From a virus (taxonomy: Duplodnaviria > Heunggongvirae > Uroviricota > Caudoviricetes), in IMG/VR virus record IMGVR_UViG_3300036790_000223: DNA of 64,000 nucleotides. One strand, written 5' to 3'. Position 1 is the stretch's first letter; the number at the start of each line of letters is the position of its first letter. The notes under the pieces were generated by a model. The model was not told where the DNA came from. It saw only the letters and a list, made by a program, of their open reading frames with translations, and did not search any database. A program made the translations under genes and the position numbers. Shown here piece by piece: positions 9,650 to 61,023 of the stretch.

Positions 9650-9722
9650 TGGAGCTAGCGCGACTTGAACGCGCGGCCTCCGCCATGCCATGGCGGCGCT
9701 CTGCCAGCTGAGCTACAGCCCC
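9650..9722 (-). tRNA. tRNA-Ala(GGC) with G3:U70
   Basis: GGGGCTG TA GCTCAGCTGGCAGAGC, CCGCC-ATGGCAT-GGCGG, GCGCGTTCAAGTCGCGC, TAGCTCC 3' acceptor as in E. coli Ala. Confidence 0.75.
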
Positions 9723-9974: not shown

Positions 9975-10046
9975 CACGGGGGCTAGGAGTCGAACCTAGT
10001 TCTCACCGGTTTTGGAGACCGATCGCCTAGCCGTTGGCTCCCCCGC
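9975..10046 (-). tRNA. tRNA-Trp(CCA)
   Basis: TCGGT-CTCCAAA-ACCGG, CTAGGTTCGACTCCTAG; overlaps the last ~17 codons of the HNH ORF. Confidence 0.65.
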
Positions 10047-30507: not shown

Positions 30508-30691
30508 TCGAATGCGCACGCATCTTTCTGTACGCAACCACGATCCTGACGTTCGCCCTGGCGCTGACGACGATGCCCCGGCCGCGTGCACTCCGCAAGA
30601 GAAGTCGGTAGGGCGCCGCAAGGCCCTGGGCCTGTTGTTCGGGGCGGCGGCTAGTACACTGCTCGCGTCAGACACGAGAGGATTGGATTGC

Positions 30692-31498: not shown

Positions 31499-31507
31499 AG
31501 AAAAGCG

Positions 31508-31553
31508 CCGCATAGCTTACCGCACTGCATCCCCTGCGCGGTAAGCTATGCGG
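31508..31553 (+). terminator. hairpin with 16-bp perfect arms after GH16 gene
   Basis: CCGCATAGCTTACCGC ... GCGGTAAGCTATGCGG. Confidence 0.45.
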
Positions 31554-31606
31554 GTAGGACCCCCGCCATAGGGGGAAGGAAGGGAATCAAGGGAAAGGAA
31601 GCAGGA

Positions 31607-32506: not shown

Positions 32507-32607
32507 GGCGCCACAAAGACCGCTCAGGGGGGTGGCTGGTGATCTGGAATAGGGGGGCGCCAGCCACCTCCATGAGCGTAGGATAAGGAAAAGGAAGGGA
32601 AATTGAG

Positions 32608-42433: not shown

Positions 42434-45400
42434 GTGACCGTCTCCTCCAACGGCACCCCGACTGTCATCGCCGGTATCACTGGCTCAGCAAGCATCAGCG
42501 TCACTGGCCAGTGGCCGACCAACCCGACTGCCCCGGCCGCTGGAGACCTGCTGGTGGCGGTCATCGGCGGGTACGGCACCACTAGCTGCACCGTCCCTAC
42601 AGCTCCGTCTGGGTGGACGCTGTGGAACTGGTGCTACGGCATCACCGCCGGGACCGGCGCCAGGTCCCTGACCACCGTTACCGCCTACTACATCAAGAAC
42701 TCCACCGGGTCCGACACGGTCCCGACGTTTAGCGCCACAACGGCGGGCACTGCAGCCGACAACGGCCTGCGCTGCGTCATCTACGACCTGTCCGACTCCG
42801 GCGGTAGCACCCCGGTTCTGTGGACGGACGGCATCACCGCACTGCCGGTTGCCGGGACTGCGACCGTGTTCACTGGTCCGGTCCCCGCTGGTTCGCTCGG
42901 GATCGCCTCGGCCACGATCTCCCAGGGCACCACTGCAGCCACGAACACGTGGACCACGCCGTCCGGCTTCACCGCAGCCACCGGTAACGAAACCGCGTCG
43001 CTGCGGTCCCAGTTCGGCTCGTTCTATACCTCTTCCGCACCGACCACCGGCAACGGCATGTCTGTGGCCATCGTGCACTCCCGGACTTCCACCGAGCAGC
43101 CCGCGATTGCGCTGGTGGCGGCACCGCCGTCCTCTTCGGGGGTCAGGCGGTTTCAGGCGTCGCCGTACCAGGCACCCACCACCGCCGCTGCAGTGCTCAC
43201 CAGCCATACGTTCGCCGCACAGCCCGACGAGCTGATCGTCGCCTCGGCAGGCGTAGGCAATGGCGTTGGCACCGCGCCGACCAGCCTGGTTGCCGTCGAC
43301 AACACCAGCGCCACCCTGACGGCGCTGGTCACCGAGCTAGCTGGCGCCGACTTCGGCCTGGCGGGGGTCTTCGCCGAAGACGCAGGTGCCACCCCGGCTG
43401 TGACGTCGGTCACGGTTACCGCCGCCCCGTCCACGGTGCACGACCCGTGCCTGGTGGTATACCGGTTCGCCGGGGCGGCGGTAACTGCAGACCAGACCGG
43501 CACCACCGCCCACGGCACCACTGCCACTTTGTCGATTACCCCGGCCCAGACCGGCTCGGTGATCGTCGGTGCGTCCGGTGACGACGGCTCCACGGCACTG
43601 ACCCCGAACGCCAGCAGCCTCGGCTACACCTCCACCACTGGTGGCGCCGGGGACCGCATCAACGCCTACATGGGCCTGGCCTACACCACGGCCTCCAGTG
43701 CGGTCACGGTCGGCTGGTCTACCGCTCCTACCGCGCTCGGCAATGCAGCGGCGGAGATCATCCCCGCTCCTCCCGCAGCTAACCCGGCACCGCTGTACCC
43801 ATTGCGGAGGCCGGTCCGGGCGCAGGCTTTGCCCCGGCGGGGCGGCCGGGTCTACCGGAGCGGTCTGCCTAACCGGATTCTCACCAACAACTTTGAGGGT
43901 GGGTCCTCCGGCACCACCATCACCACCACTAACTCCAACGGGATTAGTGGCGCTGCGTTCGACGTGGTGTCCATCGGCACCAGCGCCACCCTGGCGTTCG
44001 ACAACACTGAGGCTGCGCACGGCCTGCTGTCGATGAAGGTGGCCACGGGCGGCACCTCCACCACGTCCCTGGCTGAGTGGACCTTCTCCGAAGGTCCCCA
44101 GCTGACGATCTACTTCCGGCTGTACCTGTTCCTGTCCGCCACACCGACAGCGGCCATCAGCCCGTTCATGGTCCGCTCCGGCGCGTCTGTGGCAGCCTCG
44201 CTGCTGCTGACCACGCCGGGCACCCTCCAGCTGCGCGACGGCACCAACACCACCCAGGTGACCTTCACCACCCACCCGCCAACTGGGTCCTGGTACCGGA
44301 TCGAGGGTTACGTCACTGGTGCCAGTGGCACTGGTGGCGCGATCTCGGCCAGCCTGTACTCGCCGCTGGACTCGCTGACCCCGGTTGAGACCCACACCGT
44401 CACCGGGATCAACACCACCGGGGCGATCAGCGCCTACTGGTTCGGCCAGGCCAACACCGTCGCCAGCAGTGGTCCGTTCTGGATCGACGACATCGGGATC
44501 TCCCCGGTCGGGTTCCTCGGCCCGGCGGCGTTCCCGCCCGTCACCTCCGGGCCACCGCTGACCGCACTGGACGGTCCGGTCCGCGCACCTGTCCCGGCCC
44601 GCCGTAAGGGTGGCATCGCACGGGCCATGAGCCCGCTGGCGATCTCCTACGCCGGGCCACCGCTGACCGCACTGGCCAGCCCGGTCCAGGGACGCCGCAG
44701 GCCCACCCCACGCGGCCGGGTCTATGGCATCAGCCGCCCCGCAGTCACCGTCGCGCCACCGACCCCAGCGCCGCTGTACCCACTGAGCAAGCCGGTCCGT
44801 GCGGTCATCCCAGCCCGCACCCGGGGTGGCCGGGTCTACCAGACGACAGCCCCTACGGTCCCCGCCATCCAGACCGGCGCAGCGCCGTGGTACCTGTTCC
44901 CCACGTTCCCGCAGTGGACGGTGCTGGAGTCGTCTACCGGGCTGCTGCCTGCCGTAGCCATCATGAACAACGGCAACGGCGACGTTGTCTGGGATTCGAC
45001 CTGGGGTGCTCTCGCTACTGCCCTGCATGCCAAGGGCATCAAGCTCCTCGGTTACGTCTACACGCAGTTCGGCACCCGGCCCGAGGGTGACGTTGAGACC
45101 GCCATCGGCAACTACCTCCAGCCTGGGTTCACCCCTGGCCTGGACACCGTTGACGGTATCTTCTTTGACCAGTTCAACAACCTGACCGGCAGCGAGTCCT
45201 ACTACAACGACCTCTGCATCTCGGTCAAGAGCCAGTTCGAGGCGGTCGGCTCCGGCGCGAACAGCCCTCTGATCTGGGGCAACCCGGGCACGGCTATCGC
45301 TGCGTCCTACCTGACGCTGCCCATCGACGTGTTTGTCACGTTCGAGGGTCCGATCACCGCCTACCAGAACTTCACCCCGTTCAACGTCAACGCCTCGGGG

Positions 45401-47068
45401 TTCATCTCTGGCGCTGGGCAATGGCCCCGGCAGCGGTTCGCGCACATCGTCTTCGAGGTCGTTCGCGACCAGGTGGACGGGGTCGTAGACCGGGCCTGGC
45501 TCAACTACGCCGGTTGGGTCTACACCACCAACGGACCCGGCGACACCAACCCGTACGCCTTCATCCCCGGCAACGACTACCTGAACGACCTGGTAGCCCG
45601 GGGAGCCAGCGAGCCTCCGCTGCTGCCGCAGGGCATCCCGCCCTGGATCTACCCGCAGACCTCACCGGTCAGCGCACCGAAGCAGCGCCCCGCCCGGGGT
45701 GGGCGCGTCTACAGCCGCAGCGGTTCTCACGGTGGACTCGGCCCGGCCCTCACCGCATTGCGCGGCCCGGTTGCAGCTGCCCGGCGCAAGCTGCCACCCC
45801 GGGGCAGGGTCTACTCGGCCCGGGGCACGTTCTCCGGCAGCGGACCCGTGCTCAAGGCGCTGGCCAAGCCGCTGGCTGCCGCCCTGCGCATCCTGCCGCC
45901 GCAGGGGCGGGCACTGTCTCGCCGGGGTTTGCTCAGCGGCACTGGAGCGGTTCTCAAGGCGCTAAGTGCCCCGGTCCGTGCCCGGCCTAAGCTGCCACCC
46001 CGTGGGCAGGTAACCTCCCGGGCGGGCATCCCGTTCACCGGGTTCGGCCCGCCGCTCACCCTGCTGCGCTCCCCGGTCAAAGCAGCGCCGAAGCTCCCAC
46101 CACGGGGCAGGTCCGCAGCGAACACCGGCACGTTCGGTGGTCAGGGTGCAGCGGTCTACCCGATCCACCAGCCGGTCTCGGTTCACCATCCGCTGCCGCC
46201 ACGTGGACGCGTCTACAGCAACCCCGGTGGCCCGGTTGTTGCTCCGCCGCCACCGGGGTTCGGTCCTGCGCTCACGCCGCTGCACATGCCGGTGCGTGCC
46301 AGCTGGCCTAAGCAGGTCAGTGGTGGCACTGGCCATGGACTGCGCGGTACCCGCAATGGCGTTGGCCCGGCGCTCTACCCGCTGCACCTGCCGGTCAAGG
46401 CGGCACCGAAGCTACCACCCCGGGGCCGGGTCTACCTGCTGCCGGTGCGGGCGGTGCAGAGCCCAGCGGCACCTCCGCTGCATGTTCCAGTCCGGGCGGC
46501 CTGGCCTCAGCGCATCAGCGGTGGCACTGCTCACGGCTTGCGAGGCTTCCGTGGCGGCGCAGGACCAGCACTGGTTCCGCTGCGCACCCCGGTCAAGGCT
46601 GTTCCTAAGCTGCCGCCACGTGGCCGGATCTTCCAGTTCCTGACTCGGGCGTTCCAGTCACCACCGGTTCCTCCGCTGCATGCTCCAGTGCGGGCAGCAC
46701 CGCACAAGGCACCTGCCCGGGGCCGGATCATCACCAGCGCCGTGCGGCTGGTCCCGTTCATTCCCACGTCGGGACCGGCACTCACCCCGCTGCGGATGCC
46801 AGTCCGTGCCCGGCCGAAGCTCCCGCCGCGAGGCTGGTGCTACACCACCCCGCCGTACGTGGCACCGGGTCCGCCATCGGGTCACGCCACCGGCTGGAGC
46901 GTGGGCACCCCGCAGTCTGCCTGGATCACTGGCCTGCTGCAGGGTGCCTGGGAAAGCGGCCTGCCCGCTAGCCCCATTGCCTGGAACCCGAGCGGCCCGC
47001 AGGCCGCATGGCAGAGTGGCCCGCTGACTTCTGCCTGGGAAAACGTGTCGCCAATGACCGGAGGGTGA
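42434..47068 (+). CDS. giant tail fibre / receptor-binding protein (1544 aa) with central glycosidase-like domain and C-terminal Arg-rich modular repeats
   Basis: Long T/S/G/A-rich N-part; central W/aromatic-rich domain (IDVFVTFEG, GIFFDQF); ~20 copies of P-V-R-A-x-P-K-L-P-P-R-G-R-V-Y. Confidence 0.8.
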   Translation: MTVSSNGTPTVIAGITGSASISVTGQWPTNPTAPAAGDLLVAVIGGYGTTSCTVPTAPSGWTLWNWCYGITAGTGARSLTTVTAYYIKNSTGSDTVPTFSATTAGTAADNGLRCVIYDLSDSGGSTPVLWTDGITALPVAGTATVFTGPVPAGSLGIASATISQGTTAATNTWTTPSGFTAATGNETASLRSQFGSFYTSSAPTTGNGMSVAIVHSRTSTEQPAIALVAAPPSSSGVRRFQASPYQAPTTAAAVLTSHTFAAQPDELIVASAGVGNGVGTAPTSLVAVDNTSATLTALVTELAGADFGLAGVFAEDAGATPAVTSVTVTAAPSTVHDPCLVVYRFAGAAVTADQTGTTAHGTTATLSITPAQTGSVIVGASGDDGSTALTPNASSLGYTSTTGGAGDRINAYMGLAYTTASSAVTVGWSTAPTALGNAAAEIIPAPPAANPAPLYPLRRPVRAQALPRRGGRVYRSGLPNRILTNNFEGGSSGTTITTTNSNGISGAAFDVVSIGTSATLAFDNTEAAHGLLSMKVATGGTSTTSLAEWTFSEGPQLTIYFRLYLFLSATPTAAISPFMVRSGASVAASLLLTTPGTLQLRDGTNTTQVTFTTHPPTGSWYRIEGYVTGASGTGGAISASLYSPLDSLTPVETHTVTGINTTGAISAYWFGQANTVASSGPFWIDDIGISPVGFLGPAAFPPVTSGPPLTALDGPVRAPVPARRKGGIARAMSPLAISYAGPPLTALASPVQGRRRPTPRGRVYGISRPAVTVAPPTPAPLYPLSKPVRAVIPARTRGGRVYQTTAPTVPAIQTGAAPWYLFPTFPQWTVLESSTGLLPAVAIMNNGNGDVVWDSTWGALATALHAKGIKLLGYVYTQFGTRPEGDVETAIGNYLQPGFTPGLDTVDGIFFDQFNNLTGSESYYNDLCISVKSQFEAVGSGANSPLIWGNPGTAIAASYLTLPIDVFVTFEGPITAYQNFTPFNVNASGFISGAGQWPRQRFAHIVFEVVRDQVDGVVDRAWLNYAGWVYTTNGPGDTNPYAFIPGNDYLNDLVARGASEPPLLPQGIPPWIYPQTSPVSAPKQRPARGGRVYSRSGSHGGLGPALTALRGPVAAARRKLPPRGRVYSARGTFSGSGPVLKALAKPLAAALRILPPQGRALSRRGLLSGTGAVLKALSAPVRARPKLPPRGQVTSRAGIPFTGFGPPLTLLRSPVKAAPKLPPRGRSAANTGTFGGQGAAVYPIHQPVSVHHPLPPRGRVYSNPGGPVVAPPPPGFGPALTPLHMPVRASWPKQVSGGTGHGLRGTRNGVGPALYPLHLPVKAAPKLPPRGRVYLLPVRAVQSPAAPPLHVPVRAAWPQRISGGTAHGLRGFRGGAGPALVPLRTPVKAVPKLPPRGRIFQFLTRAFQSPPVPPLHAPVRAAPHKAPARGRIITSAVRLVPFIPTSGPALTPLRMPVRARPKLPPRGWCYTTPPYVAPGPPSGHATGWSVGTPQSAWITGLLQGAWESGLPASPIAWNPSGPQAAWQSGPLTSAWENVSPMTGG
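45650..46900 (+). repeat. intragenic array of ~26-34-aa modules (GPALTxLxxPVRAxPKLPPRGRVY)
   Basis: At least 14 consecutive modules here; further copies near 43790, 44560-44830. Confidence 0.7.
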
Positions 47069-49157: not shown

Positions 49158-50198
49158 TCAGACCGTGGCGACCTCCTGCGCCAGCTTGAACGCACGAGCC
49201 TTCTGGGCCTCAGGCGTGAGCAGGGTGCGGTTGAGGTAGGTCTCCTCGCTGCGGTAGGCCCGCACGTGGTCCAGGTACTCACCCGCGCACTGCACCAGCC
49301 CGTAGGCGGTGCCCTTCACGTGAGCGCCCGTGGGCGAGGCGAACAGCGCCTTCAGCTTGCCGCGAGCCTCGCTGACGTTGTTCATCACGCGCTCGCTGGC
49401 CATGCCAACTGGCGGCTCGGGCAGGAACTGGTCGATGAACAACTGCCGCTGCTTCGCGGTCACCTTGATCTTCATCAGTGTCTCCATCAGCTCCAGGTAG
49501 TGCGCGAACTCCTGGCGCGTCGCGGTCACCGCAGCCTTCGCGTCTTCGACCCGGTCACGCCAGTCGCCCTTGTGGACGAACCGGTAGGTCGCTCCGGTGC
49601 GGTCGCCTTCCAGCTCCGCAGCGCGGAAGGTGTTGGCGCAGACGATCCGCACGGCGGTGGCGCGAGCGGCGCACGCCGCGTAGCCATCGTGACGGTTGGT
49701 CAGGCCCAGGTAGGGCATCGTGTAGGTGCCCTTGTCACCGGGGATGGTAACCGGCTCATCGAGGCGGGCCAGTGCCCAGACCGCCCGGCCGCCTTCGAGG
49801 CTTCCGGCGGTCTCGTAACGGACACCCTTCTCCTGGTCCAGGATGGCCTCCATGATCTCGCCCATCTCGGTGTTGGTGATCAGCGAGTAGGTCCCCTGGT
49901 CCTTGTGGTACAGGGTGGTGTTGTTGTCGCTGCGGACGATGCGCCCCCAGTTGTCGTCGGGCTCGAACTGGCCCTCGATCACATGGCCGTCGCTGTCGCG
50001 CACCTTGCGGTAGCTGGCCTCGTACTCCGGGTCCCAGTCCAGGCCAGCGAGAACGCGGGCCTCTTCCCATCCACCTTCGGGATAGTCGTCCAGGACCTTG
50101 CCTTCGCGGTGCCAGGGCACCTCGCGGACGCTGAACATGTCGTCAACGTTGGCTGGCATGGGTGATGTGCCTTCCTTTCCTGTTCCTATTGGGCTCAT
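49158..50198 (-). CDS. DUF932 phage/plasmid-related protein
   Basis: Length and conserved blocks (TNRHDGYAA..., GLVQCAGEYLDH) typical of the DUF932/TIGR03299 family. Confidence 0.65.
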   Translation of the reverse strand: MSPIGTGKEGTSPMPANVDDMFSVREVPWHREGKVLDDYPEGGWEEARVLAGLDWDPEYEASYRKVRDSDGHVIEGQFEPDDNWGRIVRSDNNTTLYHKDQGTYSLITNTEMGEIMEAILDQEKGVRYETAGSLEGGRAVWALARLDEPVTIPGDKGTYTMPYLGLTNRHDGYAACAARATAVRIVCANTFRAAELEGDRTGATYRFVHKGDWRDRVEDAKAAVTATRQEFAHYLELMETLMKIKVTAKQRQLFIDQFLPEPPVGMASERVMNNVSEARGKLKALFASPTGAHVKGTAYGLVQCAGEYLDHVRAYRSEETYLNRTLLTPEAQKARAFKLAQEVATV

Positions 50199-51837: not shown

Positions 51838-52512
51838 TTGGAAACCGAGATGGTCGGTCTTGACCAGCTGACGTTGCACCCGGAGAACCCACGTCGCTCC
51901 AGTGTGTTTGAGCTGGAGAGCGGGATCACCCGGTGGGGTCAGTACCGGCCGGTGGTGGTGCAGCGCTCCACCGGCTACATCGCAGTCGGCAACCACATGG
52001 TCCAGGCCATGCGCAACCTGGGCTGGGCTAAGGCTGCCGTGCACTGGATGGACCTGAGCGACGACGACACCCGGCGGCTGCTGCTGTGGGACAACAAGAG
52101 CACCGACAGCTCTGCCTACGACGAGGAAGCCCTGGCGGAGCTGCTGGCTTCCATCGACGACCTCGAAGGCACCGGCTACACCCCTGACGACGTGGACGAC
52201 TTCCTCGCTGCTGGTGGTGGGCTGCCGATCCTGGACCCAGAGGACACCGGAGCGGCCTACGGGGAGAGCGCCGAGCAGACCCAGGCCCGGCGGGATTACT
52301 TTGCTGATGCTGCGCCCCGGGGCAGCGGTGGCGTGCGGGAGGCCATTCTGGTCCTGTCCCAGGAGGGCTTTGATGAGTACCAGCGTGGCATCAACGCGCT
52401 GCGCGCTGGCCGGGAGATGACCGGTGGTGAGGTGGGACTGCTGGCGGTGCAGGTGGCCCTGCGGGCACAGGCCCGCTGCAACGGCAGTGATGGGTGCGCC
52501 TGGTGCGGGTAG
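51838..52512 (+). CDS. ParB-like nuclease-domain protein (third in window), first gene of modification cluster
   Basis: LTLHPENPRR...STGYIAVGNHMVQAMRNLGW (ParB/Srx-like GxxR box); TTG start. Confidence 0.6.
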   Translation: METEMVGLDQLTLHPENPRRSSVFELESGITRWGQYRPVVVQRSTGYIAVGNHMVQAMRNLGWAKAAVHWMDLSDDDTRRLLLWDNKSTDSSAYDEEALAELLASIDDLEGTGYTPDDVDDFLAAGGGLPILDPEDTGAAYGESAEQTQARRDYFADAAPRGSGGVREAILVLSQEGFDEYQRGINALRAGREMTGGEVGLLAVQVALRAQARCNGSDGCAWCG

Positions 52513-52523
52513 GCTTACCTGGC

Positions 52524-52661
52524 ATGGCGGAAAAGGTAAAGGAAACGTGCACCCGGTGCGAGGGGATGGGCATTCTCCAGAAGCCCGGTAGCAAGAAGAT
52601 TGTCCCGTGCCCTAAGTGCAGTGGCATGGGTTACCGGTGGGTTCCCCGTCGTGGGTTGTGA
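52524..52661 (+). CDS. DnaJ-type CxxCxGxG zinc-finger minigene (paralog 3)
   Basis: MAEKVKETCTRCEGMGILQKPGSKKIVPCPKCSGMGYRWV; below ORF-track cutoff. Confidence 0.45.
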   Translation: MAEKVKETCTRCEGMGILQKPGSKKIVPCPKCSGMGYRWVPRRGL

Positions 52662-53721
52662 CTGGCGTCTGCCGGATAACCGGCGTGAGGCATTCCAGCG
52701 GGCATACTCATTCATGCTCCGGTACAGAAATGCGCCTGGCTGTGTCTACTTCGCCTTGCCTTACCTGGCGCACGAGCTGGACTGGGACACCGAGGAGCGG
52801 TACTGGGCAGCCTGGCTGAACGCCAACACCCAGAACCCAGTCACCACGATGCTGCTGATGGAGGCCGGAAGCGTTCCCGGCTACCACGAGCGCGTGGCCC
52901 GCTACCAGGAGCGCAACTGGAAAACCCTGCAGTGGGACTCCGACAGAAAGTGGCAGAAGAGCAGCGAGGTGTTTGGCCGGGCACTGCGCGGATACGCCGA
53001 ACTCATGGAGCAGGCAGGCAGCCAGAGCGCCTACTGGGCCGGTGTGGCTGACTGGGACGATGCCTGGCGCAGGATGACCGCCTTGCCCTACATGGGACGG
53101 CTGAGTGCCTGGAGCGGGCTGGAGTACATGCGGCTGCTCGGTGATCAGCCCATCCCCGACGCGGAGACCTTGCTGCTGGGTGACGCATCCGGGTCCCGCA
53201 GCCACCGTAACGGGCTGGCCCTGGTGACGGGGCACGACGACCTGCTGCAGGACCGGCAGCTGAACCCCGGTGGCTACACCACCAAGTGGGAGCCAGACTT
53301 CCTCACCGAGATGGAGACCGAGGGTTACTGGCTGCTAGCGCAGGCCCGGGAGCGCAATCCTGGCGAGCCAGACGTCGGGTACCTGACCCTGGAGTCGTGC
53401 TTGTGCAACTGGAAGAGCTGGCACAAGCGCAACCGCCGCTACCCGAACGTGTACGCCGACATGCTGCATGAGCGCATCCGCTGGGCTGAGGCACGGCATG
53501 GACTGCGGTTCGGTGTGCTGTGGGACGCCCGCAAGGCCGCCTTGCCGGATTACCTGCGGCTGGAAGACACCACCGGTGACCCGGGGCTGTGTGGCGTGAA
53601 GCAGAACCACTACAACGAGACCGGCGAGGTCATCTTGCTGGGGCACGAACCGGAATGGAAAGACATGTGGTCGGCGTTCGATACCGGCGTTGCCGACCGG
53701 AGATACGGGGTGTGCAGGTGA
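52651..53721 (+). CDS. large conserved-looking protein of unknown function; candidate base-modifying transferase (aGPT-pyrophosphorylase-like role is inference)
   Basis: ~357 aa, Trp/Tyr-rich, no P-loop or common cofactor motif recognised; sits between ParB-like gene and PLP enzyme; start may be TTG 52600 or ATG 52714. Confidence 0.5.
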   Translation: MGCDWRLPDNRREAFQRAYSFMLRYRNAPGCVYFALPYLAHELDWDTEERYWAAWLNANTQNPVTTMLLMEAGSVPGYHERVARYQERNWKTLQWDSDRKWQKSSEVFGRALRGYAELMEQAGSQSAYWAGVADWDDAWRRMTALPYMGRLSAWSGLEYMRLLGDQPIPDAETLLLGDASGSRSHRNGLALVTGHDDLLQDRQLNPGGYTTKWEPDFLTEMETEGYWLLAQARERNPGEPDVGYLTLESCLCNWKSWHKRNRRYPNVYADMLHERIRWAEARHGLRFGVLWDARKAALPDYLRLEDTTGDPGLCGVKQNHYNETGEVILLGHEPEWKDMWSAFDTGVADRRYGVCR

Positions 53722-53822
53722 AGCTGAGGGATGCGGAGTTCCGCCAGAGCCTGGCGATGGGTGCGGTCGTGGTGGCTGCGCTGGCCTTGCTGATTGTGTT
53801 GCTGGCTAAGGGGATCAAGTGA
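53712..53822 (+). CDS. possible 36-aa transmembrane peptide
   Basis: VQVKLRDAEFRQSLAMGAVVVAALALLIVLLAKGIK; GTGA-coupled to next gene. Confidence 0.25.
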   Translation: MQVKLRDAEFRQSLAMGAVVVAALALLIVLLAKGIK

Positions 53823-54280
53823 CTGACGAACGCTTCTACGCTGACCCGGTGGCTAACCGGCTAGCCCTGCACAAACGGTTCAACCCGGCAGAGCTGCGTG
53901 GCGGACATGGGCAGTGGATTGCTGGTTTGGGGTCCCTGGGTGACAAGCTGAACGACGCCGGGTACAACATGGCAGCCGGTGCCGTGGGCAGGGCAGCGCA
54001 GCATGCCAGCGCCGGGGACATGGAAGCAGCGCACCGGTCGCTGGATCACGCCCGTGATGCCGTGCGCGGCAAGCACCAGGAGATGGCCCGCAGTGCCCCC
54101 AGGGCTGGTGAGGTGCGCCCGGATGCTTACGCCCGTGATGATGCGCTGCGCTCCATCGAACAAGCACGCAGCAGCCAGCCTGACCCGGCCACCAGCCGCA
54201 CCACCTTCGGCAGTAACTTCCGTTACGGTGCCGCGATCTCACCCCAGAGCGATGTGGAGCCGAGGCGCAACACCGGATGA
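53819..54280 (+). CDS. hypothetical protein (Ala/Arg-rich, 153 aa)
   Basis: Overlap-coupled within cluster. Confidence 0.5.
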   Translation: MTDERFYADPVANRLALHKRFNPAELRGGHGQWIAGLGSLGDKLNDAGYNMAAGAVGRAAQHASAGDMEAAHRSLDHARDAVRGKHQEMARSAPRAGEVRPDAYARDDALRSIEQARSSQPDPATSRTTFGSNFRYGAAISPQSDVEPRRNTG

Positions 54281-55125
54281 GCCTGACCCCGGTTGAGCGC
54301 CACGATGGCCTCTGGCTCAAGCTGGAGGAGCGTCACCGGCTGCCCAGCGGGGTCAACGGCTCCAAGCTGCGTGCCTGTCAGTACCTGATCGGGGCAGCGA
54401 AGGCCGCCGGTAAGACCCGGGTGATCTCAGCTGCGTCGGTGCTGAGCCCGCAGAACGCCATGGCCGCGAACGTAGCAGCGGACCTGGGCATGGAGTGCAC
54501 CGTCATCCTCGGTGGCACTAAGCCATCCACTGCCGGGCGCCACCGCGCGGTGCAGATCGCCAGCGACTACGGTGCTGACTTCCGGTATATCCCGGTTGGC
54601 TACAACCCGGCCCTCCAGCGCGCCGCCCGCGCCGAAGCCACCGATCCGGCCGCTTACCACCTGCAGTACGGCATCACCACCCCGCCCGATGCCAGCGCAG
54701 TGGAGTTGCGCGCGTTCCATAACGTAGGCGCAGACCAGGTGGCCAACCTGCCTGCTGAGGTGAAGACCCTGGTGATCCCGTTCGGATCCGGCAACACTGC
54801 CGCTGGAGTACTCCTGGGGCTCAGCCAGCAGCCCCCTGAGGCCCTGGAGCGGGTCATCCTCATGGGTATCGGGCCAGACCGTCAAGAATGGCTCTGGAGC
54901 CGTCTGGCCGTCCTGGACGCTAAGGTTCCGGTGCCGGTGACCCACATCGCCTTGCACCCGGACTTTGCCACCTACGGGGACAAGATGAAGGCGTCCATCG
55001 GCCCCATCACGATGCACCCGACCTACGAGGGCAAGATCGTCCGGTGGGCAGATGAGAACCGTCCCCCCTGGTGGACCAGGAGGGACGGTTCAACGGCGAT
55101 GTGGATCGTTGGCGGGCCGATCTAG
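54277..55125 (+). CDS. PLP-dependent enzyme of the ACC-deaminase/D-cysteine-desulfhydrase (Trp-synthase-beta fold) family
   Basis: NGSKLRA matches the PLP-lysine N-K-x-R-K box; Gly-rich FGSGNTAAG loop; 282 aa. Confidence 0.65.
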   Translation: MSLTPVERHDGLWLKLEERHRLPSGVNGSKLRACQYLIGAAKAAGKTRVISAASVLSPQNAMAANVAADLGMECTVILGGTKPSTAGRHRAVQIASDYGADFRYIPVGYNPALQRAARAEATDPAAYHLQYGITTPPDASAVELRAFHNVGADQVANLPAEVKTLVIPFGSGNTAAGVLLGLSQQPPEALERVILMGIGPDRQEWLWSRLAVLDAKVPVPVTHIALHPDFATYGDKMKASIGPITMHPTYEGKIVRWADENRPPWWTRRDGSTAMWIVGGPI

Positions 55126-55643
55126 GCGGCGACCTCCCACCGCAGCTGGTAAGCGGAGGTGACCAGCAGGTGCGCCTCAGCAGCGGCGCCGCACTCAATG
55201 CGGCATTCGCCGCACTCAATGCGGCATTCGCCGCAGTCGATGACCGCATGTAGCCATGCAATTAGGCCACTGCCGGGCCAGAACCATTCCTGGCCAATGC
55301 GGTAGGGCGCGAACATCTTCTGCAGGCGCCGCTCCTGCAACTCCTCGCCGGGGACAGAGAGGATCATCTTCACCCTCAGCTCACCCCCACGCCGCCGCGT
55401 GTTGGCCGAGGTGCCGATCTTCAGATGTGCGCCCCCATCCCAGGCCACGTAAACTCGTTGACCGCTGGCTGCAGTGCGGGTGCGAACGATGGGCGCGACG
55501 CGGGGGACTAGCCTCCGCGCTTCTGTTGTAGTACCATTGTGCACAGAAGTAGTCACCGTTTCTGGTCCTCTTTCCGTTACGGTTTTTACAGATGAAGCTT
55601 GGGCAGCCACCCAAGCTTCATCGCTTTTCCCTGAGAATACCAC
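55122..55643 (-). CDS. T5orf172/GIY-YIG-like domain protein (homing-endonuclease-like), antisense insertion in cluster
   Basis: VYVAWDGGAHLKIGTSANTRRRGGEL ... RIGQEWF core; C-terminal ECGECRI repeats. Confidence 0.65.
   Translation of the reverse strand: MVFSGKSDEAWVAAQASSVKTVTERGPETVTTSVHNGTTTEARRLVPRVAPIVRTRTAASGQRVYVAWDGGAHLKIGTSANTRRRGGELRVKMILSVPGEELQERRLQKMFAPYRIGQEWFWPGSGLIAWLHAVIDCGECRIECGECRIECGAAAEAHLLVTSAYQLRWEVAA
55189..55242. repeat. 21-bp tandem repeat x2.6 (CCGCACTCAATGCGGCATTCG)
   Basis: Two perfect copies plus diverged partial; in-frame within T5orf172 gene. Confidence 0.8.
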
Positions 55644-55864
55644 CAGACGCGCCCACGATCAAGCCTGCGTGCGATGGGTACCGCCCACCCCCGTCAGGCC
55701 CTCGCGGGCCGTCACGGGCCAGCTCAGCGCCAGGTGTAGCACGCTGTAGCTTGCCCAAGCGCTAAGCAAACGGCAGCGTGGCGCAGGTTGGCGCAAATTG
55801 ATGCAGGCTGAGCTGTCGGCGCCGATGGAAAGGGCGTTAAGCCCGGCGTTTAGGCTAGGCGGTC

Positions 55865-56452
55865 ATGGACCTCATCTACATCACCGGAGCCCCGGCCACT
55901 GGCAAGTCAACCCTGATGGCGCAGATTACTAAGGGATGCGAGCGCCAGCCCCGCAGCGGTCCGCCTGCTCACGATGTACTGACCACCCACGGCGGGATCG
56001 TTGGCGCTGAGCTAGGGGTCCGACGTGAGCGTTACAGCGGGACCGACGCCCTGCCACTGAACATCCAGCCTCGCGCGCTCACCTGGCTAGCTCAGATGCC
56101 CTACCGCGTCGTGCTGGGTGAAGGCCAGCGCCTGGGCAACTACGGCTTTCTGTCCGAAGCCATGAACACTGGCTACCGCGTCACCTTGATCCACCTGGTT
56201 GCTGATGAGGTCACGCTCGATGCCCGCCGGGCGGAGCGGGGCAGTGCTCAAGATCCCCGCTGGATGAAAGGCGCGAGCACCCAAGCAGCCAACCTGGCCC
56301 GCCAGTGCAGCGGGGACGGCCGGATCACGGTGGTGGAGCTGGACGCGGCACTGCCGCTGGAGACACTGCTGGAGCAGCTGAACGTCTACCTGCCTGTGCT
56401 GGCGAAACTGGGGGATCATGAAACTTACGGCAGCAGCTCCGGTGCGGCATAA
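55865..56452 (+). CDS. small P-loop kinase (candidate DNA 5-hmU/nucleotide kinase)
   Basis: ITGAPATGKSTL Walker A; 195 aa, size of nucleoside/nucleotide kinases. Confidence 0.65.
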   Translation: MDLIYITGAPATGKSTLMAQITKGCERQPRSGPPAHDVLTTHGGIVGAELGVRRERYSGTDALPLNIQPRALTWLAQMPYRVVLGEGQRLGNYGFLSEAMNTGYRVTLIHLVADEVTLDARRAERGSAQDPRWMKGASTQAANLARQCSGDGRITVVELDAALPLETLLEQLNVYLPVLAKLGDHETYGSSSGAA

Positions 56453-56609
56453 GTGCTGGATTTGCGATGGCACCGGCAGCCGTCAAGCCTATGTCGAAGG
56501 CAACAACAAGTTCCGGATCATCCAGTGTGCGGCCTGCGTCGGGAAGGGGTGGCGCGTCTACCATGACTGGTGCGATGTGGGAATACCGCATCCGGGCAGC
56601 ACGAGCTGA
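56418..56609 (+). CDS. DnaJ-type CxxCxGxG zinc-finger minigene (paralog 4)
   Basis: CWICDGTGS ... CAACVGKGW. Confidence 0.45.
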   Translation: MKLTAAAPVRHKCWICDGTGSRQAYVEGNNKFRIIQCAACVGKGWRVYHDWCDVGIPHPGSTS

Positions 56610-57690
56610 AGCTCAGTTCCGCAACCCGGCCTGCAAGGATGAAGATCACGTAGCGTGCGGCTGCATGTGGGGCAAGAACGTCCCGCAGACCTTCCGTGGT
56701 ATCACCATCGGCCCGCAGGCCGTCAAGCTGCTGAAGCCCAGCGGCAAGCCGCTGGCGATCTACCTGCCTGGCTACATGGCACGGCACACCAGTGACGAAG
56801 CCACCTACGCCATCCTCGACGCGATGGGGCGTACCGGTAAGACCGGCAACCGGGGAGCAGCCGGAGCCACCCCGCAGCTACCCCGAGGCAAGCAGCTGCG
56901 CAGCTACGCGGTACCTATCCACTCCAACATCATGGGTGCGTTCGAGCCGAGCGGGCTGTACAAGACCTGCCGCCTGACCGTCTACACCGCAGCCCACATG
57001 GAAGACTGGAAGGCCCTGGAGCCTGCCCTGCAGGACGTCGCAGCCGCCCTGCAGGAGCACGTGCCGGATCGTTACGCTAAGCAGGCCGAGCAGGCTGCCC
57101 GTACGCTACCGGAGTGGGTGATCCCCGGTACCCCGTTCACCACCGTGACGGTGAACCACTCCTACCCCACCGGAGTCCACACCGACAAAGGTGACCTTGA
57201 TGCTGGGTTCAGCGCTATCTTCGCCGCCCGGCGTGGTCACTACACCGGAGGCGAGCTGTGCTTCCCGCAATACGGGGTGGCGGTAGACCTGCAAGACGGT
57301 GACCTGATCCTGATGGACGCCCACGACTACCACGGCAACACCGCCATGACCTGCGCGTGTGGTAACGACATCCGCAAGCCGTGCAAAGTCTGCGGAGCTG
57401 GCCGGGTCTCGGTGGTCACGTACTTCCGCACTAAGATGCCTGAATGTGGCAGTGCCGAGGCTGAAGTAGCTAAGGCCGCTGCCCGGGCAGAGCGCCGGAT
57501 GCTCACCGATGCACAGCTGCTCGCAGAGCTGAACGGAGCCCCGCTCACGGTGAACGCTATTCAGCGCACCCTGAAGCTAGGTGACCTGCGTGCCGCGCGG
57601 GTGCTGCAGCTGGCAGCGGAGACCGGCCGTGAGGTAGCACCTGAAGAACTAGCCAAGGCCCACGCCATCTGGGCTAAGAACGCGGGGTAG
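56563..57690 (+). CDS. 2OG-Fe(II) dioxygenase (candidate TET/JBP-like thymine hydroxylase) with Zn-ribbon and C-terminal winged-helix-like tail
   Basis: HTD (HxD) ... DAHDYHGN distal His ... RVSVVTYFR; CACGN..CKVCG; start could be a few codons later. Confidence 0.6.
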   Translation: MTGAMWEYRIRAARAEAQFRNPACKDEDHVACGCMWGKNVPQTFRGITIGPQAVKLLKPSGKPLAIYLPGYMARHTSDEATYAILDAMGRTGKTGNRGAAGATPQLPRGKQLRSYAVPIHSNIMGAFEPSGLYKTCRLTVYTAAHMEDWKALEPALQDVAAALQEHVPDRYAKQAEQAARTLPEWVIPGTPFTTVTVNHSYPTGVHTDKGDLDAGFSAIFAARRGHYTGGELCFPQYGVAVDLQDGDLILMDAHDYHGNTAMTCACGNDIRKPCKVCGAGRVSVVTYFRTKMPECGSAEAEVAKAAARAERRMLTDAQLLAELNGAPLTVNAIQRTLKLGDLRAARVLQLAAETGREVAPEELAKAHAIWAKNAG

Positions 57691-57694
57691 AGAA

Positions 57695-57841
57695 ATGGCC
57701 CGGACCTCCTACACCAAGCCCCGCACCTGCCCAGCGTGCAAAGGTGCAGGCCGCTACATCAGCTACAAAGACGTCCGTGGTGTCCCGAAGCGGGAGACTA
57801 AGGCGTGCAAACGCTGCAAAGGCACCGGCAAGGTAAGCTAG
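57695..57841 (+). CDS. DnaJ-type CxxCxGxG zinc-finger minigene (paralog 5)
   Basis: CPACKGAGR ... CKRCKGTGK. Confidence 0.45.
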   Translation: MARTSYTKPRTCPACKGAGRYISYKDVRGVPKRETKACKRCKGTGKVS

Positions 57842-58607
57842 GTGATCACCCAGGGTCCTGGCTACGGCTGGTTGCAGCACCGGGTCTGACTACTCCCACT
57901 ATCCCGACTTCCCGTGGTTTCGCGCTCCTTCTCCGCGCGACAATCCTGCGCTCCCCCGACATCCCAGCCCAGCGCCGCACCACGCATTGCTGACTACCCA
58001 GCCCAGCACCGCGCCAGCCGACTATCCATCCAGCTCCCGCCCGGTGCAGCCGACTATCCAGCACCCGCCCGTGCCAGACCCGACAAACCGAGCCACCGCT
58101 GGACCCGTCCGACTCACCTAGTCAGGTCTACTCGTTTGCCGACAAGCCGAGCCAGTTCACTGCTGCCCCACCGCACCGCGACATGCCATGTCGCGCCCAA
58201 GCCTGCCTGACGTGCCTATCCGCTGCCGCTCCTCCTCTGACCTAGCCGGTCCTTTCTGACACACCTGTCCGACTCCGACATGCCGACCCGGCGCGTGTTC
58301 CTGACATGCCGCTTCGTTGCGCACCCGACATGCCTCGCCGTCCCCAGTCTTTTCCGACGACCCTGCCCTGCACACCACCCGGCCCATCCGACATAGCTAA
58401 CCAGTCCCTGCTCCGACATCCCTGTCCGACCTAGCCCATGGCATGCCCTGACTAACCCATCCGGACCAGCCTCCGACTTGCCTGGCCGAGCCAAACCCGA
58501 CATCCCATGCCGCCTCATACCACCGCGACAAGTCCAGCCGTGTCTGTCCGCAGCGAATCCAAATCCGACATTCCGGGCCAGAACCTTCTTGCGCTATCCT
58601 GACCCAC
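57842..58607. repeat. C-rich, G-poor non-coding region with at least 10 same-orientation CCGACAT(G/C)C repeats and a CGACATG-C-CATGTCG palindrome
   Basis: Seen directly; ORF-track ORFs here are all short, overlapping and on the G-rich strand. Confidence 0.7.
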
Positions 58608-58859
58608 ATGACAGCCCGTACCAACGCTGAGTTCGCCATCGCACTGATCAAGGCCCGGCGTGAGCAGAACGTGAAGGCAGGACTGTGTCCACGCTGTGGC
58701 AGCGCGATGGTGGGCGGGGACTACATCCGCTTTGCCTGGCGCTGTGTAGCCTGTGAGCAGGACCGGAAGAAAGCAGAAAACGCCCGGCAGATGTTCGCTC
58801 AGCTCCAGGCCCTCGATGGAACGCACCAGCCAAACGCTGTTCGCAAGCCGGGTGCTTGA
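58608..58859 (+). CDS. small Zn-ribbon protein
   Basis: CPRCGSAMVGG...CVACEQ; 83 aa. Confidence 0.45.
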   Translation: MTARTNAEFAIALIKARREQNVKAGLCPRCGSAMVGGDYIRFAWRCVACEQDRKKAENARQMFAQLQALDGTHQPNAVRKPGA

Positions 58860-58952: not shown

Positions 58953-59504
58953 GTGGTCAGTCGGAGGAGCGCAGAGACCCGAACCCGGGATGCGTACTGC
59001 TACAAGTTGCGCCAGCAGGGGTTCGGCTATCAGCAGATAGCTGACCAGATTCAGCGGGGCTTCAATGAGGCAGCCGCCCTGACCGGCGGCACTCCCCGCA
59101 CGTATTCGTCCATGGCCGCCTGGAAGGCTGTTCAGCGGCACCAGGCAGAGATGCCAGTCGAAGACCGGCAGATGCAGCGCCAGCTCGGCGCAGACCGACT
59201 CGAAGAGCTGTATCAGGCCGCCAAGCGCATCTACGTGTCCCGGCACTACGTGGTCTCCACGACCGGCCGGGTGGTCACTGGTCCTGACGGCACCACCCCG
59301 CTAGAAGACCACGGACCCAAGCTGGCAGCTGTGCGTGAGATGCGGGCACTCGAAGAGTCCCGTCGTAAGCTGTTTGCGCTGGACGCCAAGCCGTCCCTCA
59401 ACACCTTCAGCGAGGACGACGCCGATACGCTGCTGGCTGCCCTGCAGCAGGCAGATGCCACGGTCCTGGAGATAGCCGATGCCGACGAAGACGCCACCGT
59501 CTGA
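58953..59504 (+). CDS. terS: terminase small subunit (N-terminal HTH)
   Basis: RTRDAYCYKLRQQGFGYQQIADQIQRGF HTH; directly upstream of and overlapping terL. Confidence 0.6.
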   Translation: MVSRRSAETRTRDAYCYKLRQQGFGYQQIADQIQRGFNEAAALTGGTPRTYSSMAAWKAVQRHQAEMPVEDRQMQRQLGADRLEELYQAAKRIYVSRHYVVSTTGRVVTGPDGTTPLEDHGPKLAAVREMRALEESRRKLFALDAKPSLNTFSEDDADTLLAALQQADATVLEIADADEDATV

Positions 59505-61023
59505 GCTGGTTCTCGACCTCTCCCCAGCCAAGCGTGCTGCCCTCACCGCCGCTCTGCAACGGCATAAGGCCCGCCAGGCACAAGCAGCAGCGCAGCGGCT
59601 GGCTAACCGTGAGTGGCTGACCATGGCCCGGCCTAAGCAGCTGCCCCCGCACAACCCACGTCACCACTTGCCAGATGAGAACGGCAACGTCTGCGGCTGT
59701 GATGGCGTGGACACCGACTACGAAGTGTGGATGATGTGCGCCGGGCGCGGCCTGGGCAAGACCATGGCCGGAGCCAGCAACCTGGTTATTGATGCCCTGG
59801 CGGGCTGCACGGTCAACCCAGGTGGACACTGCAGGCAGTGTCCGCACACCTGGGGAGTGATCGGGCCAACCCGTGAGGCTGTCCAGGAGATTTGCTTCCA
59901 GGGCGTCAGCGGCATCCTGGCTGCGCTGGAGCCCGAGGAGATTGCCAGCTACAACAAGTCCCTGCTGATGGTGACACTGACCAACGGCAACCAGATCCGG
60001 GGCTTCTCGGCTCAGATTGGCGACCGCCAGCGTGGGCTGAACCTGTCTGGTGTGTGGGTGGACGAGCTGGCGAACTTCCAGTACGAGGACGTCTGGCACC
60101 AGATGCGGTTTGCGCTGCGGATTGGCAAGAACCCGCGCATCTACGTGACCACCACCCCGTACTCCACCCGCTTGATGCGCCAGCTGTTCAAGGATGCGGC
60201 TGAGACCGGCAAGGTGCACATCACCACCGGGCACACCTTCGAGAACAAGGCCAACCTGGGTGCCTCGGCCCTGGAGGCGCTGGAGAAGCGCTACGGCGGC
60301 ACCCGGATGGGACGCCAGGAGCTGGCCGGGGAGCTGCTGGAGGACGTTGAGGGTGCGCTGTGGTGGCGTGCGCTGTTTGACGATCACCGGGTCAAAGCAC
60401 CACCCCGGACCCTGAAGCGCTGCGTGGTGGCGGTGGACCCCGCCATGACCAGCGGCGAGAACAGCGACGAGACCGGGATCATCGTGGCTGGCGTCGGTGA
60501 CGACGACGAAGCGTACGTGCTGGCTGACTTGTCCGGCCGGTTCAGCCCTGGTGAGGGCATGGAGCGCGTGGTCAGGGCGTTCAACGACTTTGAGGCTGAC
60601 TGCATCGTCGCTGAGCAGAACAACGGTGGCGACTTTGTCCGGGACTTGGTGCATACTGTCGACCCGAACGTGCCCTACCGCCAGGTCTACGCCAGCCGGG
60701 GTAAGGCCACCCGTGCTCAGCCTGTCTCAGCGCTGTATGAACAGGGCCGCGTTCACCACGTCGGTACCTTCGCTGAGCTGGAAGACCAGTGCTGCATGTG
60801 GATGCAGGACGACCTCAACTCACCTGACCGGATGGACGCCCTGGTCTGGGCCATCATCTGGCTGCGGGACCTGTATGCCGGGTCGATCACGGGCGCCTAC
60901 GGCTACGGGCACTGCCCGCATTGCGAGTCGTTCATCCGCATGGAGGGCATGAGTTCCTGCGACAAGTGTGGCTCGCCGCTGCGGCTGAGCACCACCAACG
61001 GCAAGAACCCAGCCCTGGTCTAG
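59479..61023 (+). CDS. terL: terminase large subunit
   Basis: ATPase core (MCAGRGLGKT Walker A, VWVDELANF Walker B), RNaseH-like nuclease half (VVAVDPAM...GIIVAG), C-terminal Zn ribbon. Confidence 0.9.
   Translation: MPTKTPPSELVLDLSPAKRAALTAALQRHKARQAQAAAQRLANREWLTMARPKQLPPHNPRHHLPDENGNVCGCDGVDTDYEVWMMCAGRGLGKTMAGASNLVIDALAGCTVNPGGHCRQCPHTWGVIGPTREAVQEICFQGVSGILAALEPEEIASYNKSLLMVTLTNGNQIRGFSAQIGDRQRGLNLSGVWVDELANFQYEDVWHQMRFALRIGKNPRIYVTTTPYSTRLMRQLFKDAAETGKVHITTGHTFENKANLGASALEALEKRYGGTRMGRQELAGELLEDVEGALWWRALFDDHRVKAPPRTLKRCVVAVDPAMTSGENSDETGIIVAGVGDDDEAYVLADLSGRFSPGEGMERVVRAFNDFEADCIVAEQNNGGDFVRDLVHTVDPNVPYRQVYASRGKATRAQPVSALYEQGRVHHVGTFAELEDQCCMWMQDDLNSPDRMDALVWAIIWLRDLYAGSITGAYGYGHCPHCESFIRMEGMSSCDKCGSPLRLSTTNGKNPALV

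Follow-up and report, generated by a model that had tools for sequence, protein, structure and literature searches.

A probable post-replicative thymidine hypermodification cassette beside the terminase genes of an uncultivated phage

The window analyzed here is a 64-kb stretch (65% G+C) of IMG/VR record IMGVR_UViG_3300036790_000223, an uncultivated phage with a genome of about 117 kb. Between positions 51838 and 57841, it carries five rightward core genes, which encode a ParB-like protein, an amino-acid:DNA transferase (AADT), a pyridoxal phosphate (PLP)-dependent enzyme, a P-loop kinase, and a TET/JBP-family dioxygenase. The cassette lies just upstream of the terminase genes, with the large subunit encoded at 59479-61023. 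We consider it probable that the five core enzymes act together in the post-replicative hypermodification of thymidine. An original prediction, made from the sequence alone, had already read the region as a thymidine hypermodification cluster, and this overall interpretation is supported by the protein families, the catalytic residues, the synteny with other phage loci, and the homology of the PLP enzyme to gp226 of phage ViI. All of the open reading frames (ORFs) that it claimed exist, their positions agreeing exactly or to within a few codons, and the overlaps that couple the rightward genes next to the packaging genes were confirmed. Four of the five core proteins score above curated Pfam cut-offs (Tet_JBP, ADDT, PALP, and Ploopntkinase3), and the ParB-like protein was recognized through PHROG (E 2e-32). 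The core genes have a G+C content at third codon positions (GC3) of 0.76 to 0.84, typical of coding sequence in the window. Identical proteins occur only in a 116,795-bp JGI/IMG contig, a 36-kb IMG contig, and Logan assemblies, with none in NCBI. A megablast search with the 6-kb region gave no match among 50,697 phage records, and a sigma-70 promoter scan of the region found none.

The dioxygenase matches the Pfam family Tet_JBP (PF12851) with 70.6 bits (cut-off 34.9; E 1.2e-19) and PHROG 24024 (E 4e-47), and Pfam reported no other family of 2-oxoglutarate (2OG) oxygenases for it at E values up to 0.1. The expected HxD...H motif and distal arginine correspond to H206-T-D208, H257, and R281 (numbering of the 375-residue protein), which lie in the motifs HTD, HGNT, and RVSVVTYFR and are invariant across 13 homologues. 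The protein also has a CxC...CxxC insert and a conserved cysteine, C295. Scanning IMG/VR with the dioxygenase yielded 80 homologous loci at 35 to 56% identity; its relatives in cultured phages are distant (37% identity at most), and none of them is an actinophage. Sequence and profile searches of the PDB with this protein found nothing. Eighty residues follow the invariant C295, compared with about 10 to 40 in most relatives. The last 55 or so (57520-57690; LTDAQLLAELNG...AIWAKNAG) form a helical-looking tail, and a Cys/His-containing insert is found near the N terminus (56640-56720). Both elements are absent from the 80 relatives, and neither matches any family.

This architecture recalls the ParB-dependent subclass of 5mYOX enzymes, which was defined together with its gene neighborhoods by O'Toole 2026 (PMC13229309). 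The ParB-associated 5mYOXs of clade C1 are experimentally T-dioxygenases "consistently linked" with P-loop kinases and AADTs, and they make 5-hydroxymethyluracil (5hmU) on double-stranded DNA only when their own ParB is present (PMC13229309). Their subclass is marked by extra C-terminal sequence beyond C280 (5mYOX176 numbering), the final residue that all subclasses conserve (PMC13229309). Like the clade C1 pathways, the window combines a TET/JBP dioxygenase, extended beyond its last conserved cysteine, with an adjacent short ParB-like gene that has no helix-turn-helix (HTH), a linked P-loop kinase and AADT, and no neighboring C5-methyltransferase that could be found; clade C1 pathways are, moreover, often located near terminase genes. 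It differs from them in the additional tail of about 55 residues and the N-terminal insert. The window dioxygenase fits clade C1, a placement made from context and architecture and not from a phylogenetic tree, and by analogy we predict that it is a post-replicative thymine dioxygenase of the ParB-associated type.

A different substrate has to be weighed here. The dioxygenase could act on 5-methylcytosine (5mC), in which case the cassette would hypermodify cytosine, as in phage C5-methyltransferase/TET systems. Phage TETs of clades A and B oxidize 5mC (PMC8256090), the phage enzymes 5mYOX97 and 5mYOX176 are roughly as active in vitro on 5mC as on T (PMC13229309), and about 43 kb of the genome lies outside the stretch searched for a C5-methyltransferase. 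Within the 64-kb window, neither motif IV (PCQxFS) nor motif I of C5-methyltransferases occurs in any of the six frames, nor does the thymidylate-synthase motif. Furthermore, Pfam identified no C5-methyltransferase and no dUMP hydroxymethylase among about 50 scanned ORFs, and neither enzyme appears in the annotation of the next 10 kb. Since neither was found, the substrate is likely to be thymine. A ParB partner, a kinase, and an AADT, all present here, are also hallmarks of the T-dioxygenases of clade C1 (PMC13229309), and every characterized AADT works on 5hmU derivatives. We therefore regard a cytosine pathway as very unlikely.

The putative partner of the dioxygenase had been described as a ParB-like nuclease-domain protein, and the ParB-like assignment is borne out by PHROG, the Pfam ParB_N match being below threshold (15.1 bits against a cut-off of 26.3; E 0.024). 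The protein consists of an N-terminal ParB/Srx domain, the one part that Pfam can detect, followed by an acidic linker and a short C-terminal domain; no HTH was detected in it. It is 31% identical to gp1 of the Coopervirus phages, annotated as "ParB-like nuclease domain protein," and 67 of the 80 IMG/VR loci have a ParB homologue upstream of that of TET. By analogy with clade C1, we predict that it activates the dioxygenase. In the Mycobacterium phage AlanGrant, gp1 (L004 1-1440) carries a ParB-like N-terminal domain fused to an N6/N4-type DNA methyltransferase domain, and this fusion occupies the left-end position held by ParB and the hydroxylase in other Coopervirus phages. A second ParB-methyltransferase fusion was seen in a locus from IMG/VR (L010 3554-4969).

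The second core protein, rich in tryptophan and of unknown family in the original prediction, had been nominated there for the pyrophosphorylase-like transfer step. It is indeed recognized as an AADT, the group formerly called aGPT-Pplase clade 2, by Pfam ADDT (52.6 bits, cut-off 26.2; E 6.9e-14) and by PHROG 3271 (E 5e-67); ViI gp247 and M6 gp51 match the same Pfam model. Three starts are candidates: the GTG at 52651, which fits homology, the TTG at 52600, which gives the longest ORF, and the ATG at 52714, called in the Logan assembly. The protein is 53% identical to Coopervirus gp3 and 46% identical to the "aGPT-Pplase clade 2" protein of Glutamicibacter phage Montesquieu. The closest of the characterized enzymes is the serine:DNA transferase gp247 of ViI (26% identity; E 7e-12), and no significant pairwise similarity was detected with the glycine transferases M6 gp51 and PaMx11 gp46. 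At the profile level, hhalign nevertheless relates the window clade to the M6/PaMx11 clade (97.9%; E 4e-13). In this alignment, E248-S249 and C252, invariant in 16 sequences, correspond to E243-T244 and C247 of PaMx11, which are structurally defined as the metal ligands and the catalytic cysteine (PMC11472151, PMC13458397).

Some residues of the AADT bear on the donor. The tyrosine that contacts the donor carboxylate in YuA (Y257) is kept as Y264, a position at which diamine transferases have Asp, and its conservation favors an amino acid as the donor. The position that follows the catalytic cysteine (K248 in YuA) is Asn in the window protein, Thr in its relatives, Trp in ViI, and Lys in the glycine enzymes. 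Many residues are invariant in both the window clade and gp247, for example, in the motif GSxSxRNG. Y264 and the residue next to the cysteine suggest that the donor is an amino acid whose identity cannot be read from the sequence. PDB sequence and profile searches with the AADT found nothing.

The PLP enzyme matches Pfam PALP with 51.8 bits (cut-off 35; E 9.6e-14), and among solved structures it is most closely related to ACC deaminase and D-cysteine desulfhydrase, in agreement with the ACC-deaminase fold proposed for it. Over residues 24 to 279, nearly its whole length, it shares 31% identity with ViI gp226 (E 8e-49), and its match to M6 gp52 is far weaker (E 3e-5). K30, in the sequence GVNGSKLR, aligns with K92 of gp226 (GINGSKLR), the predicted Schiff-base lysine, and the GSGNT phosphate loop is present. 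Since gp226 decarboxylates O-seryl-thymidine in DNA (Lee et al., PMC8989533), the PLP enzyme of the window is predicted, from this homology, to decarboxylate an amino-acid-thymine adduct.

The kinase scores 127.8 bits against Pfam Ploopntkinase3 (cut-off 27; E 4.7e-37), is 44% identical to Coopervirus gp4, and has the P-loop ITGAPATGKST, which is invariant in its relatives. It is encoded beside the AADT and the TET protein, the latter being the presumed source of 5hmU, an arrangement shared by the window and 22 syntenic loci, and 40 of the 80 IMG/VR loci have a kinase gene just ahead of the TET homologue. On this basis, the protein is predicted to be a 5-hydroxymethyl-dU (5-hydroxymethyldeoxyuridine) DNA kinase (5-HMUDK), which is the least secure step of the pathway.

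The arrangement of the genes is conserved well beyond this phage. IMG/VR loci were fetched with the dioxygenase as the query, and the other homologues, including those of the PLP enzyme, were recovered by local tblastn with the window proteins. The order ParB, AADT, PLP enzyme, kinase, TET is found unchanged in 22 IMG/VR contigs at 35 to 61% identity. Because these contigs are independent, the recurrence of the five genes in one order indicates that the cassette is not a chance assembly. The PLP enzyme itself is 55 to 61% identical to its homologues in 20 of the 22 loci and about 40% identical in the other two. In some contigs (L008 and L009), the five genes adjoin one another and no other gene intervenes.

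Other contigs keep the ends of the cassette and exchange its middle. ParB, kinase, and TET are retained in L010, L018, L035, and L041 and in the Microbispora contig L088. In the first four, the middle is filled by a transferase of the M6/PaMx11 type and a gp47-like FAD oxidoreductase; in L088, it is filled by a transferase of that type and a second ORF without a significant match. The replacement of the middle genes in sister contigs implies that the tailoring slot is interchangeable, as has been proposed for the metavirome by Lee et al. (PMC8989533). Additional conserved genes are found in relatives: one of about 180 codons between the PLP and kinase genes in 13 loci (L007 3584-4174, L013 6776-7312, and 11 others) and one of 267 codons between the AADT and PLP genes in six (L016 1655-2458 and five others). 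Neither belongs to a Pfam family, and their products may be further tailoring enzymes.

Table 1. Predicted genes of the cassette region, core genes first
Feature	Length (aa)	Coordinates	Strand	Assignment or evidence
ParB-like protein	224	51838..52512	+	PHROG phrog_723 "ParB-like partition protein," E 2.1e-32
Amino-acid:DNA transferase (AADT, formerly aGPT-Pplase clade 2)	356	52651..53721	+	Pfam ADDT PF18724
Fold-type-II PLP-dependent enzyme	282	54277..55125	+	Pfam PALP; gp226 homology
P-loop kinase	195	55865..56452	+	Pfam Ploopntkinase3 PF18751
TET/JBP-family Fe(II)/2-oxoglutarate dioxygenase (5mYOX)	375	56563..57690 (or start 56467)	+	Pfam Tet_JBP
Zn1 minigene, two CxxCxGxG	55	52494..52661	+	Anti-TRAP E 6.6e-6, DnaJ_CXXCXGXG E 1.6e-4, both under cut-off
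Zn2 minigene, two CxxCxGxG	63	56418..56609	+	Overlaps kinase end and TET start; upstream Shine-Dalgarno-like GGGGGA
Zn3 minigene, two CxxCxGxG	48	57695..57841	+	DnaJ_CXXCXGXG E 1.2e-7, 32.3 bits (cut-off 32.7)
p153	153	53819..54280	+	No Pfam/PHROG family; translationally coupled to PLP gene
Antisense T5orf172/GIY-YIG-like ORF	173 (144 from GTG 55556)	55122..55643	-	Sub-threshold Pfam

The predicted pathway, modeled on characterized homologues, would begin with the TET/JBP dioxygenase which, aided by the ParB-like protein, would oxidize a subset of the thymines in double-stranded phage DNA to 5hmU. The P-loop kinase would then phosphorylate the hydroxymethyl group to give 5-phosphomethyl-dU. 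The conserved cysteine of the AADT would attack C6, the phosphate would be expelled, and a free amino acid would be joined to the exocyclic methylene. Finally, the gp226-like PLP enzyme would decarboxylate the adduct, leaving a side chain with a primary amine. A PLP enzyme requires a free alpha-amine. Because this last step needs the alpha-amine free, and because there is no radical S-adenosylmethionine (SAM) isomerase, the donor is probably joined through its side chain, as happens with serine in ViI. The original prediction held that nothing in the sequence tells which group is appended; this can be narrowed, since the joint presence of a gp247-lineage transferase and a gp226-like decarboxylase, again with no radical-SAM isomerase, points to chemistry of the ViI type. 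The simplest product would be 5-(2-aminoethoxy)methyl-dU, made from serine, which we put forward as possible but on the doubtful side.

Several observations weigh against parts of this scheme, in addition to the basis of the clade C1 placement, the activity of related enzymes on 5mC, and the partial coverage of the genome discussed above. Every enzymatic activity, the ParB dependence, the donor amino acid, and a role in resisting restriction are inferred from sequence and analogy. The kinase belongs to PF18751, whereas the proven 5-hmdU DNA kinases of other phages belong to PF18748 (HMUDK_HMUD1; M6 gp54) and PF18747 (HMUD2; ViI gp243). Its only tie to M6 gp54 and PaMx11 gp49 is an hhalign match (93.8%; E 1.7e-7; 129 columns): pairwise BLAST against the proven kinases was not significant, and the matches of a PDB profile search were limited to P-loop segments. 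The earlier proposal of a 5-HMUDK is upheld in part: the protein belongs to a P-loop family associated with DNA modification in phages and is probably a remote homologue of the proven kinases, but it falls in neither validated 5-HMUDK Pfam family. Fold-type-II PLP enzymes also perform eliminations and replacements. The window is devoid of both the ~180-residue and the 267-residue proteins of its relatives, so its product may differ from theirs. As for the donor, the AADT is only 26% identical to gp247 and has Asn in place of K248 (Trp in ViI and Thr in the relatives), and two pocket residues suffice to switch the donor in the AADT family (PMC13458397); for this last reason, serine is a guess.

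The same pathway could accordingly lead to another product. Either a different amino acid, such as threonine, cysteine, ornithine, or lysine, would be attached through its side chain, or the PLP enzyme would not be a decarboxylase, and the outcome would be an undescribed hypermodified thymine. The distance from gp247 and the variable residue after the catalytic cysteine leave room for this, as do the nearest solved relatives of the PLP enzyme, which are deaminases and desulfhydrases; in addition, very few pocket residues fix the donor, and many sequence clusters of the family are uncharacterized (PMC13458397). Against it stand the full-length homology of the PLP enzyme to a proven decarboxylase, with the catalytic lysine aligned, and the many residues, such as those of GSxSxRNG, that are invariant between the window clade and gp247. 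We regard such an alternative product as quite possible, if short of probable. Somewhat more doubtful is the specific case of an undescribed modification in which ParB-assisted formation of 5hmU on finished DNA and activation by the Ploopntkinase3 protein would be followed by the joining and decarboxylation of an amino acid other than serine or glycine.

Five further ORFs are interleaved with the core genes, and overlaps couple the rightward ones. The ParB-like gene overlaps Zn1 by 19 nt, and Zn1 overlaps the AADT gene by 11 nt if the latter starts at GTG 52651; p153 and the PLP gene share ATGA; the kinase gene overlaps Zn2 by 35 nt, and Zn2 overlaps the TET gene by 47 nt; Zn3 starts 4 nt past the TET stop codon. 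Comparison with related loci indicates that the minigenes, p153, and the antisense ORF are lineage-specific insertions, passengers and not core components of the cassette. The three minigenes had been called DnaJ-type: each does contain two exact CxxCxGxG repeats, but their scores against the zinc-finger domain DnaJ_CXXCXGXG (PF00684), 32.3, 22.3, and 20.9 bits, fall just below the cut-off of 32.7. Ten of the 11 CxxCxGxG motifs of the window occur in pairs within five short ORFs, which are paralogues. This family of 48- to 68-residue proteins is expanded in the genome, with members at 4213-4416 and 8175-8330 besides the three of Table 1 and three or four more just beyond the window (L093 12511-13835). 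No counterpart of the minigenes was found in 65 related loci (790 kb). A role as accessory factors of the pathway was rejected on account of this absence and of the genome-wide distribution of the family.

The p153 product has one relative (64% identity), apart from its own sequence and two marginal matches, among 1.84 billion representative proteins. Its gene has a GC3 of 0.73, compared with 0.82 to 0.84 in its neighbors, and is absent from all related loci, where the AADT and PLP genes adjoin each other or flank a different gene. It was considered as a tailoring enzyme and rejected, being an ORFan without a Pfam or PHROG family.

The antisense ORF sits in a 740-bp insertion between the PLP and kinase genes, which are closely spaced in the minimal relatives, and is likewise absent from all related loci. 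The original prediction had likened it to T5orf172 homing endonuclease genes. A KIG(T/S)...R...EWF motif can be seen by eye, and PHROG 8604 is matched with an E value of 2e-5; the Pfam scores are below cut-off, both for T5orf172 (PF10544; 16.5 to 17.0 bits against 20; E 0.009 to 0.013) and for MUG113 (E 0.01). The T5orf172 likeness is a weak lead, and a homing endonuclease is putative. Invasion of the cassette by a mobile element is nonetheless plausible, and a GIY-YIG-like ORF occurs at a different junction in the related locus L022. The insertion also contains a 21-bp tandem repeat (2.7 copies; 55187-55242) that encodes CGECRIE repeats of the antisense ORF, and a hairpin with a perfect 13-bp stem (55591-55622) followed by a T-rich run.

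These five non-conserved ORFs raise the question of whether the region is a decaying or inactive remnant broken by mobile insertions. A related reading would assign it to packaging, with a ParB nuclease and the "kinase" as the small terminase; the terminase genes abut the cassette, and PHROGs labels the kinase family "terminase small subunit." Nevertheless, all five core ORFs are intact, keep their catalytic residues, and have the GC3 values given above, and the insertions lie between genes and not within them. The small-terminase identity of the kinase was rejected, since proven 5-HMUDKs, M6 gp54 and PaMx11 gp49, carry the same label, which for that reason appears to be a propagated misannotation. 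Moreover, a separate 183-residue ORF lies directly upstream of the large terminase gene and overlaps it. It matches ORFs found just past the TET gene in seven related loci, and those of L018 and L035 have TerS-like sequence at their start. We give the remnant or packaging explanation very little weight and retain the hypermodification cassette as the probable function of the region.

The host of this uncultivated phage is likely an actinomycete. Relatives of the dioxygenase come from contigs that were part of genome assemblies of Streptomyces africanus and Microbispora, and the best cultured-phage relatives of the transferase come from Mycobacterium phages and from Montesquieu (whose host, judging from the phage name, is presumably Glutamicibacter).

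The cassette is a genuine case of a type of system described only recently, and the type itself is not new. Contigs in which TET_JBP replaces the hydroxymethylase were noted by Lee 2021 (PMC8989533), before the ParB-dependent subclass was defined; the clade C1 study characterized the oxidation step only and gave no full pathway or end product (PMC13229309). The original prediction that an actinophage version would be new does not hold, given the left-end module of the Coopervirus phages and the five-gene system annotated in the Rhodococcus phage Tonitrus (PMC11955845). No modified base in Coopervirus phages or Tonitrus is reported in the literature that we found.

The Coopervirus phages (Mycobacterium phages of cluster B4) share with the window a (for the window, likely) actinobacterial host and, as noted, the AADT and the kinase. 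Their left end runs through ParB-like, hydroxylase, AADT, and kinase genes directly to the terminase. The hydroxylase gene lies between ParB and AADT, whereas the TET gene of the window follows the kinase gene, and its product is a divergent TET/JBP protein (26 bits, below the Pfam cut-off; 24% identical to that of the window). Most of these phages have no PLP gene; AlanGrant has a PLP gene and a kinase gene with its ParB-methyltransferase fusion, and no AADT. In Montesquieu, an AADT, a PLP enzyme (36% identity), and kinases of the Ploopntkinase3 family are encoded next to one another, but this phage differs by a thymidylate synthase/pyrimidine hydroxymethylase and an extra clade-1 Pplase and by the absence of both TET and ParB.

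Salmonella phage ViI, which makes 5-(2-aminoethoxy)methyl-dU, offers a parallel in chemistry. Like the window, it pairs a transferase of the gp247 lineage with the PLP enzyme gp226 without a radical-SAM isomerase, and the order kinase, transferase, decarboxylase is the same (PMC5889632, PMC8989533). The differences lie in the source of 5hmU, in the kinase, for which gp243 was compared and gp67 left out, and in the layout, the ViI genes being scattered over the genome and the window genes forming a single cassette, with identities of only 26 to 31%. The original prediction had extended a TET/JBP source of 5hmU to M6, ViI, phiW-14, and SP10. This part was wrong: in those phages, 5hmdU is made before replication by a dUMP hydroxymethylase, as the literature reports for ViI, whereas in the window TET/JBP and ParB would act on finished DNA. 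Consistently, the M6 and PaMx11 genomes carry thymidylate-synthase-like genes. These two Pseudomonas phages, which make the glycine-derived 5-NedU and 5-AcNmdU, share with the window the AADT superfamily, with an identical catalytic cysteine and metal motif, and a cassette of kinase, transferase, and tailoring enzymes. They differ in their glycine-type transferase clade, with Lys after the catalytic cysteine, in tailoring by radical SAM and PLP enzymes or by an FAD lyase and an acetyltransferase, and in using a thymidylate-synthase-like hydroxymethylase instead of TET. The sister contigs L010, L018, L035, and L041 do have a cassette of the M6/PaMx11 type behind ParB.

TET/ParB-initiated pathways have been described as a large unexplored landscape (O'Toole 2026, PMC13229309), and in the literature that we found, end products have so far been determined only for pathways that start from pre-replicative 5hmdU. 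If the more doubtful reading given above, with an amino acid other than serine or glycine, were correct, the phage, presumably one of actinomycetes, would offer a TET-initiated route to hypermodified thymidine that is, for the first time, complete and has a defined end product, and Ploopntkinase3 would become the third family of DNA kinases in such pathways. As it stands, the cassette adds an instance, not a principle. It is one of the compact forms, and with five genes in about 6 kb and 22 syntenic relatives, it is a practical candidate for full reconstitution. Reconstitution would test Ploopntkinase3 as a 5hmU DNA kinase, identify the amino acid used by the transferase clade, and reveal whether ViI-type chemistry is coupled to a post-replicative, sequence-selective source of 5hmU. 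DNA from phages of this kind may be protected from restriction enzymes and may give poor results in sequencing or amplification.

Other features of the window lie outside the cassette. An array of 26 tRNA genes occupies 403-10046 (-), interspersed with small ORFs that include the two CxxCxGxG minigenes of that region. Sugar-related genes are grouped at 28256-34029: a family-2 glycosyltransferase (28256-29437), a GH16 domain protein (30380-31498), and a CapD/Polysacc_synt_2-like dehydratase (32608-34029). Apart from this set, a 1544-residue ORF with a Spherulin4 domain is found at 42434-47068. The 5' end of a DUF932 gene (49158-50198, -) carries a near-threshold match to a type II hammerhead ribozyme (RF02276; 50187-50242, -; 33.6 bits against a gathering score of 37), in which the CUGAUGAG and CGAAAC cores are intact and two stems are clean.

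Finally, the non-coding stretch between Zn3 and the packaging genes (57850-58610, +) is 43.6% C on the plus strand and has 18 copies of CCGAC on that strand and none on the minus strand. It holds seven of the 21 CCGACAT of the window (binomial probability of about 3e-11). A degenerate search, in place of an 8-mer repeat scan that was too strict, resolved it into an array of CCGAC(A/T)T(G/C)CC-like repeats, which could be a binding array for the small terminase (pac) or for a ParB-type protein.

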